From the NCBI RefSeq assembly GCF_036507355.1, contig NZ_AP027877.1: DNA of 64,000 nt; one strand, 5' to 3'. Source of the stretch: Escherichia coli. Lineage in GTDB: Bacteria > Pseudomonadota > Gammaproteobacteria > Enterobacterales > Enterobacteriaceae. The translations under genes were made by a program, and so were the position numbers. Under the pieces are notes generated by a model. The model worked only from the letters and a program-made list of their open reading frames with translations, did not search any database and had not been told where the DNA came from. Position 1 is the stretch's first letter; the number at the start of each line of letters is the position of its first letter. Shown piece after piece: positions 30,653 through 31,135 of this stretch.

Positions 30653-31135
30653 TTAAGGGGTAGTAATCACCACTGCGACGCGGCGGTTCTCGGCGCGGCC
30701 CTGGGCGGTCTTGTTACTGGCTATGGGATATTTTTTTCCTAAACCCTGTGTGGTGAGATTGCTGCGCGGAATTTGTCCACCCATAGCCCATGCATCGGCC
30801 ACGACATTCGCCCGTTTCAATGATAAGCCTTCGTTGTAACTATCTTCACCATAGTTATCGGTGTGTCCATCCATACGGGCATGTGTTAGCCCTGTCTAGG
30901 CCAATTTGGCTGCCATGGTTTGGATCTGTTGCTGGCTTTCCGGGAGCAATTTGTAGTCATTTTTTGCGAACAGAATGGCATCTGATAAGCCCAGCGACCA
31001 GTCGCCGGCGGATTCAGTAAATCCATAAGATTGCATAGCGGCGACTTGCTCAGGAGTAAACTTTCCCTGAGGGGACTGGCAGCCAGTCAGTATTAGTGAG
31101 GTGAAAATCAGGGGTGCTACCAGGTGCTTTATCAT
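30653..31135 (-). pseudogene. yfiB: yfiB (OmpA-like outer-membrane lipoprotein of the YfiRNB module) with one in-frame amber codon at 30896-30898
   Basis: ORFs 30896-31135 (MIKHLVAPLIFTSLILTGCQSPQ...MAAKLA) and 30653-30874 (MDGHTDNYGED...RRVAVVITTP) are one frame joined through TAG: ...AKLA*TGLTHARMDGHT...; total 160 codons. Confidence 0.8.

Follow-up and report, generated by a model that had tools for sequence, protein, structure and literature searches.

The stretch of Escherichia coli DNA analysed here, a segment of 64 kb referred to as the window, has the gene order gabP...ssrA-smpB...ffh-rpsP-rimM-trmD-rplS, followed by yfiB-dgcN-yfiR-yfiL on the minus strand and then by aroF-tyrA-pheA...clpB-rrnG...srmB. 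The yfiR-dgcN-yfiB operon keeps the gene order and spacing of E. coli K-12, shares its chromosomal location (yfiL-yfiR-dgcN-yfiB, facing rplS in convergent orientation) and is 97.5-99% identical to the K-12 operon. Its three genes correspond to the YfiBNR (TpbB) system of Pseudomonas aeruginosa. In this module YfiR is the periplasmic repressor of the inner-membrane cyclase YfiN, also named DgcN, and YfiB switches on YfiN by sequestering YfiR. The yfiR gene of the window (32367..32885, minus strand), which encodes this repressor of DgcN, is intact, codes for 172 aa and matches the NCBIfam model sequest_YfiR with 168 bits (cut-off 85). In contrast to the YfiBNR family, however, the repressor gene alone is intact, whereas the other two genes, dgcN (yfiN; 31151..32377, minus strand) and yfiB (30653..31135, minus strand), are interrupted by amber codons and represent pseudogenes. 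Judged from its sequence, the module as encoded cannot work as described for this family.

The reading frame of yfiB spans 160 codon positions plus a terminal TAA and is broken at codon 80. The triplet CTA at positions 30896-30898 of the plus strand reads TAG on the minus strand, and translation of 31135..30653 yields MIKHLVAPLIFTSLILTGC...QTMAAKLA (79 sense codons), the TAG, TGLTHARMDGHTDNYGED...VVITTP (80 sense codons) and the TAA. In an alignment with E. coli GF3-3 and K-12 the ancestral codon 80 is TCG (Ser), which also occupies this position in RM10410 and in Escherichia sp. E1V33. The mutation is a single base change at position 30897, G to T on the plus strand and C to A on the coding strand, in a gene that is otherwise collinear and aligns without gaps to its K-12 orthologue (98.97% identity). 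Translation and alignment thus confirm the first-pass annotation, which had described a yfiB frame of 160 codons with one internal stop at this place. Both halves are recognized as parts of YfiB: the NCBIfam YfiB-orthologue equivalog PRK09967 matches residues 1-79 with 158.8 bits and residues 81-160 with 173.3 bits (cut-off 155), and the NCBIfam model OMP_LP_YfiB also matches both. The residual N-terminal ORF (30899..31135, minus strand, 79 aa) consists of a signal peptide with the lipobox LTGC (LTG-C19, read by eye in MIKHLVAPLIFTSLILTGC...), a linker and ~25 residues from the start of the OmpA-like domain. The untranslated remainder (30653..30895, minus strand, residues 81-160) carries the rest of this peptidoglycan-binding domain, and its frame is still open. 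As the Pfam OmpA domain comprises residues 55-151 of the repaired YfiB, the TAG at codon 80 cuts it after about 25 residues, and an uninterrupted peptidoglycan-binding domain is not encoded. These features agree with the earlier prediction that the truncated protein keeps the lipoprotein signal and the N-terminal region and loses the OmpA-like domain. A further yfiB ORF of 73 residues, which begins at M88, has no signal peptide. The 79-aa stub has been deposited as a hypothetical protein (BED21307.1 / WP_000589816.1), and the truncated products of the locus are found under BED21306, BED21307, and BED21309. With an internal stop where its orthologues carry a sense codon, reproducible across assemblies, yfiB has the defining features of a nonsense pseudogene.

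The second amber codon, also listed in the first-pass annotation, replaces TGG by TAG at W105 of dgcN (K-12 numbering; 32063-32065, minus strand), upstream of the GGDEF domain. The first ATG of the K-12 gene is AAG in both the window and E1V33, and the start of dgcN moves to the second ATG at 32374; in the overlapping 3' end of yfiR the same base change converts N170 of YfiR to K. At the amber site TCC TGG CAT has become TCC TAG CAT, a G:C to A:T change at the inner C of CCTGG, which is a Dcm site. Deamination of 5-methylcytosine at Dcm (CCWGG) sites gives rise to ambers, and the dgcN change is the one expected from the methylated inner C on the complementary strand. The classic description of such amber hotspots in lacI is said to be that of Coulondre and Miller from 1978. 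Within dgcN, deamination at Dcm sites can create a stop at two codons only, W105 and W297. Codons 102-106 (window positions 32056-32075) form a hotspot that combines the Dcm site with a 7-bp direct repeat (CTGGCAT-C-CTGGCAT). Slippage at this repeat with deletion of 8 nt yields exactly the 106-aa product P0018 (ending in ...NILALHP), which is recorded on 99 contigs; a W105* product whose N-terminal haplotype differs from that of the window (P0019) is found on 55 contigs. Dcm hotspots account for the dgcN lesion only, because the yfiB lesion lies outside any Dcm site (context GGCC TCG ACA) and is a transversion. An origin of the yfiB change by template switching at a quasi-palindrome (TTGGCC-TCGACAG-GGCTAA, identified by eye) is unsupported, as the mutated base belongs to the loop instead of an arm. 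The genes yfiB and dgcN were hit by distinct mutations, a G:C to T:A transversion in the former and a G:C to A:T transition at CCTGG in the latter.

A single-base difference might reflect an artefact of sequencing or assembly, with TCG as the true codon 80 of yfiB. However, a segment of 2,851 nt from yfiL to yfiB is 100% identical in contigs of assembly GCA_905398585.1 and of sequencing run SRR31122001, and both lesions are present in each. The contig of GCA_905398585.1 matches the window at 15,866/15,866 bases without a mismatch, and that of SRR31122001 at 14,283/14,284 bases with one mismatch. The isolate behind SRR31122001 carries a prophage adjoining raiA that the window lacks, and therefore is distinct from the strain of the window; both belong to one near-clonal lineage. 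Since at least two further, independent datasets contain the identical double lesion, base-calling error is excluded, in line with the earlier view that the stops are not sequencing noise. The yfiB TAG is also found in strain PCN033 and in an ENA metagenome contig, and the quality of the assembly is high: in 47 conserved CDS of the window (13,401 codons; 42 K-12 orthologues and 5 further conserved genes) no gaps or frameshifts were found, the ambers in yfiB and dgcN are the only internal stops, and the 45 other genes are intact. The probability that an artefact produced the yfiB stop is thus negligible. By our own arithmetic, two hits among 47 genes fall into adjacent genes with a probability of ~0.04; the adjacency of the lesions departs mildly from randomness, which is to be expected of genes with coupled functions.

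In SRR31122001, phage genes for a Cox-like protein, a helix-turn-helix repressor and an integrase (L012, positions 1-2083) replace raiA and its flank as found in the window, and the prophage site at raiA is polymorphic within the double-lesion lineage. An ORF for an IS4-family transposase (442 aa, 37937-39265, plus strand; NCBIfam, 304 bits) lies between raiA and bamD, where the intergenic region of K-12 is uninterrupted. The GCA_905398585.1 contig breaks at window position 37928, which is consistent with the same IS4-family insertion in that genome. Two copies of IS1 (8307-9075 and 15653-16421), 7,346 bp apart and in direct orientation, are found in the island next to ssrA, where they interrupt a gene with an alpha-amylase C-terminal domain and truncate ypjA and a recombinase gene. 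Three IS copies per 64 kb suggest an IS-rich strain. A tract of ~275 bp (~32175-32450, minus strand) runs from the 3' end of yfiR into dgcN, of which it covers codons 1-67. It matches Escherichia sp. E1V33 (L017) at 100% identity and typical E. coli at 89-97%. E1V33 belongs to a different species-level lineage of Escherichia, and its whole yfi region is 88.7% identical to the window. This mosaic indicates that the tract was imported by recombination between lineages. A 30-mer of the tract haplotype occurs in 27/5,426 complete E. coli genomes, mainly of O145:H28, where the divergent tract is longer. The stops did not arrive with the E1V33-like sequence, because the tract ends ~110 bp before the dgcN TAG and E1V33 itself carries TGG and TCG at the two sites.

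The distribution of the two alleles was surveyed with 30-nt queries centred on each mutation, for which the 28-nt word of Megablast forces the mutant base to match. Among 5,426 complete RefSeq genomes of E. coli, the yfiB TAG allele was found once, in PCN033, the dgcN TAG allele once, in RM10410, and both together in none. In both strains RefSeq flags the affected gene as a pseudogene with an "internal stop", and the respective partner gene is intact. The survey of co-occurrence that had been proposed shows the lesions together in GCA_905398585.1 and SRR31122001, and each alone in a single complete genome. A contiguous match over at least 80% of the operon is missing in 20/5,425 genomes. The best match among the 5,426 complete genomes reaches just 99.5% for the core segment of the window (19500-30600) and ~96% for the segment with gab and the ssrA island (1-19400), and therefore no close relative of the lineage is contained in the RefSeq complete-genome set. 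In a larger assembly collection, yfiB S80* exists on at least three haplotype backgrounds, namely the window lineage, a PCN033-like haplotype with an adjacent prophage, and an L006-like haplotype. Contigs that encode the 79-aa product numbered 70, a count inflated by the exact-product look-up, which selects chance contig ends; a genuine TAG is present only in L002/L004, L005/L012/L013, and L006. A mutational hotspot at yfiB codon 80 was rejected, as five supporting contigs of other haplotypes merely break off at ...GGCC(TC), and their C is the wild-type base. The end of an IS629-type element (TGAACCGCCCCGGGTTTCCTGGAGAG...) was observed in yfiB codon 81, one codon past the amber site, in the O145:H28 draft genome GCA_008634465.1 (L016, positions 2745-2871); we take the inserted element to be IS629. 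Insertion of this element is an independent route of yfiB loss but not a common one, because it was seen in one O145:H28 draft and the junction is found in 0/5,426 complete genomes. The TAG alleles of yfiB and dgcN are rare, scattered, recurrent, and unconserved. Conservation of a stop among relatives, as looked for in a recoded codon, was found at neither site: each TAG occurs in one of the 5,426 genomes, and E1V33 has sense codons at both positions.

The first-pass annotation had taken the fact that both stops are TAG as a hint at an amber-suppressing background. If the ambers were decoded, by a suppressor tRNA or by natural readthrough, full-length YfiB and DgcN would be made and the module would be reduced or heterogeneous in its activity. 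TAG followed by A or C is among the weaker 3' contexts for termination, and the next base is A in yfiB and C in dgcN; the frames downstream of both stops are open. However, basal readthrough of UAG in wild-type E. coli is low, in the order of per cent or less, and the identity of the stops has no signal value, as the codon routes and the Dcm site suffice to explain it. TAG is the only stop that can be reached from TCG in one step, and it accounts for 35% of the single-step nonsense routes in dgcN and 37% of those in yfiB. Of random nonsense pairs in the two genes, ~13% would both be TAG if the hotspot is ignored, and more if it is considered. The hint at suppression is therefore not supported. 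No suppressor tRNA is present among the three tRNA-type genes within the window (a CAT-anticodon tRNA, tRNA-Glu, and tmRNA), and TAG is the natural terminator of 3/47 genes, which is an ordinary rate; within the 64-kb window nothing supports an amber-suppressor background. Moreover, the alleles are rare and scattered, whereas programmed recoding predicts the opposite. Some support for decoding comes from Shigella flexneri, where a dgcN gene with a different premature stop, over-expressed in E. coli BL21, increased the signal of a c-di-GMP reporter and yielded a band at the size of the full-length protein; such a band was also reported for a nonsense dgcQ (PMC11327459). The authors offered no explanation for this band and mentioned readthrough (PMC11327459). 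A nonsense codon in dgcN thus is not guaranteed to be a null allele, and a small probability has to be reserved for leaky decoding; we regard decoding of the ambers as very unlikely. If it did occur, the YfiRNB module would survive as low-level signalling, or as signalling that is heterogeneous from cell to cell, instead of being dead, and would parallel the unexplained full-length DgcN and DgcQ bands of the S. flexneri nonsense alleles.

Most likely, yfiB is a true loss-of-function pseudogene, and two independent nonsense point mutations have inactivated the cyclic-di-GMP module of a natural E. coli lineage. Both lesions are fixed in this near-clonal lineage. Translation of yfiB would halt after residue 79, and the product would be a short lipoprotein stub that lacks the peptidoglycan-binding part of the OmpA/Pal-like domain. 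Unable to bind peptidoglycan, such a stub could presumably not relieve the repression of DgcN by YfiR. For the P. aeruginosa protein, mutational loss of peptidoglycan binding leaves YfiB inactive and unable to sequester YfiR (PMC3375315). DgcN would end with residue 104, ahead of the second transmembrane segment, the HAMP domain and the GGDEF domain, so that no membrane-anchored cyclase is expected from the normal start. In addition, the ~900 untranslated bases of dgcN probably lower the transcription of yfiB via polarity. Once either gene is lost the other would be left useless, and the second hit would therefore be neutral or mildly favoured, which may explain the co-occurrence of the lesions. 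As each allele occurs alone in other strains, either hit may have come first. The yfiB gene is dispensable: Salmonella enterica naturally lacks yfiB in its yfi operon, and relocation of YfiN persists in an E. coli yfiB knockout (PMC4992967).

The substitutions specific to the lineage are few. With the imported tract removed, those in dgcN are A81V, W105*, A127T, L145F, and one synonymous change, those in yfiB are S80* and two synonymous changes, and those in yfiR are V40I and one synonymous change. In dgcN and yfiB together, the total of three missense, two nonsense, and three synonymous changes is compatible with relaxed constraint, at small numbers. Downstream of the stops, dgcN has two missense changes and one synonymous change and yfiB has two changes, both synonymous; these numbers, too, are small. 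The open and little-changed frames 3' of both stops fit a recent event and are also compatible with continued use.

The module may also have been lost through adaptive, or "reversed", selection. If DgcN activity were costly in the niche of this lineage, knockout of the module would be selected and both hits would be favoured. When active, DgcN/YfiN halts growth and cell division, and it is described as lacking an autoinhibitory site (PMC4992967; PMC10127611); a selective advantage of its loss is therefore possible. Recurrent loss would point in the same direction: besides the presence of yfiB S80* on several haplotype backgrounds and the IS629 insertion at codon 81 in the draft O145:H28 genome, codons 102-105 of dgcN have been struck more than once (W105* on two haplotypes, the 8-nt deletion product on 99 contigs). 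However, these recurrences came to light by looking up exactly these truncated products and are subject to ascertainment bias. In the unbiased set of complete genomes each allele occurs only once and the IS629 junction does not occur. The recurrence in dgcN is explained by the hotspots at the Dcm site and the 7-bp direct repeat, and if the module is already silent after the first knockout, a second one would bring no further gain. Adaptive loss thus appears rather unlikely, with a higher probability than decoding of the ambers. The proposal of relaxed or reversed selection on the module, made on first inspection of the locus, stands as a joint reading, which is the best one; relaxed and reversed selection are indistinguishable here.

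The inactivation of the module by two nonsense mutations, our preferred account, has parallels in other enteric bacteria. In Shigella and in pathogenic strains of E. coli, c-di-GMP genes are often eroded by stops, IS elements, and deletions (PMC11327459; PMC10333796), and degenerate diguanylate cyclase genes were treated by Povolotsky and Hengge (2016), as cited in PMC11327459. The dgcN gene of the window shares with these degenerate genes a premature stop that precedes an intact GGDEF domain, but the stop of S. flexneri dgcN is located elsewhere, at position 120 in the published table (Ojha et al., 2024; PMC11327459). YfiB of S. flexneri has been treated as a full-length protein of 17.2 kDa (PMC8948675), and Shigella yfiB therefore differs from the S80* allele. 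A Shigella origin of the window, considered in view of its IS1 and IS4 copies and of the dgcN pseudogene known from Shigella, was rejected on these two grounds and because the deposited proteins (locus tags VEE46_107xx) are labelled Escherichia coli. In contrast to the erosion in Shigella, the host is labelled E. coli and the 45 surrounding conserved genes are intact, which argues against genome-wide decay. The lineage also differs from Salmonella enterica, which keeps a functional YfiN in its yfi operon without yfiB (PMC4992967), whereas dgcN is broken here. Each single allele is already annotated as a pseudogene in another genome. New are only this particular lineage with both lesions and the explanation of how its two hits arose.

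Two adjacent amber codons in one signalling operon can be explained by the functional coupling of its genes, a Dcm hotspot, and the few codon routes to a stop, and no special cause is needed. For genome annotation and for the interpretation of strain phenotypes, the lineage is best treated as lacking both YfiB and DgcN. It would thus represent a natural double mutant of the module through which envelope stress is connected with c-di-GMP, biofilm formation, and the arrest of cell division.
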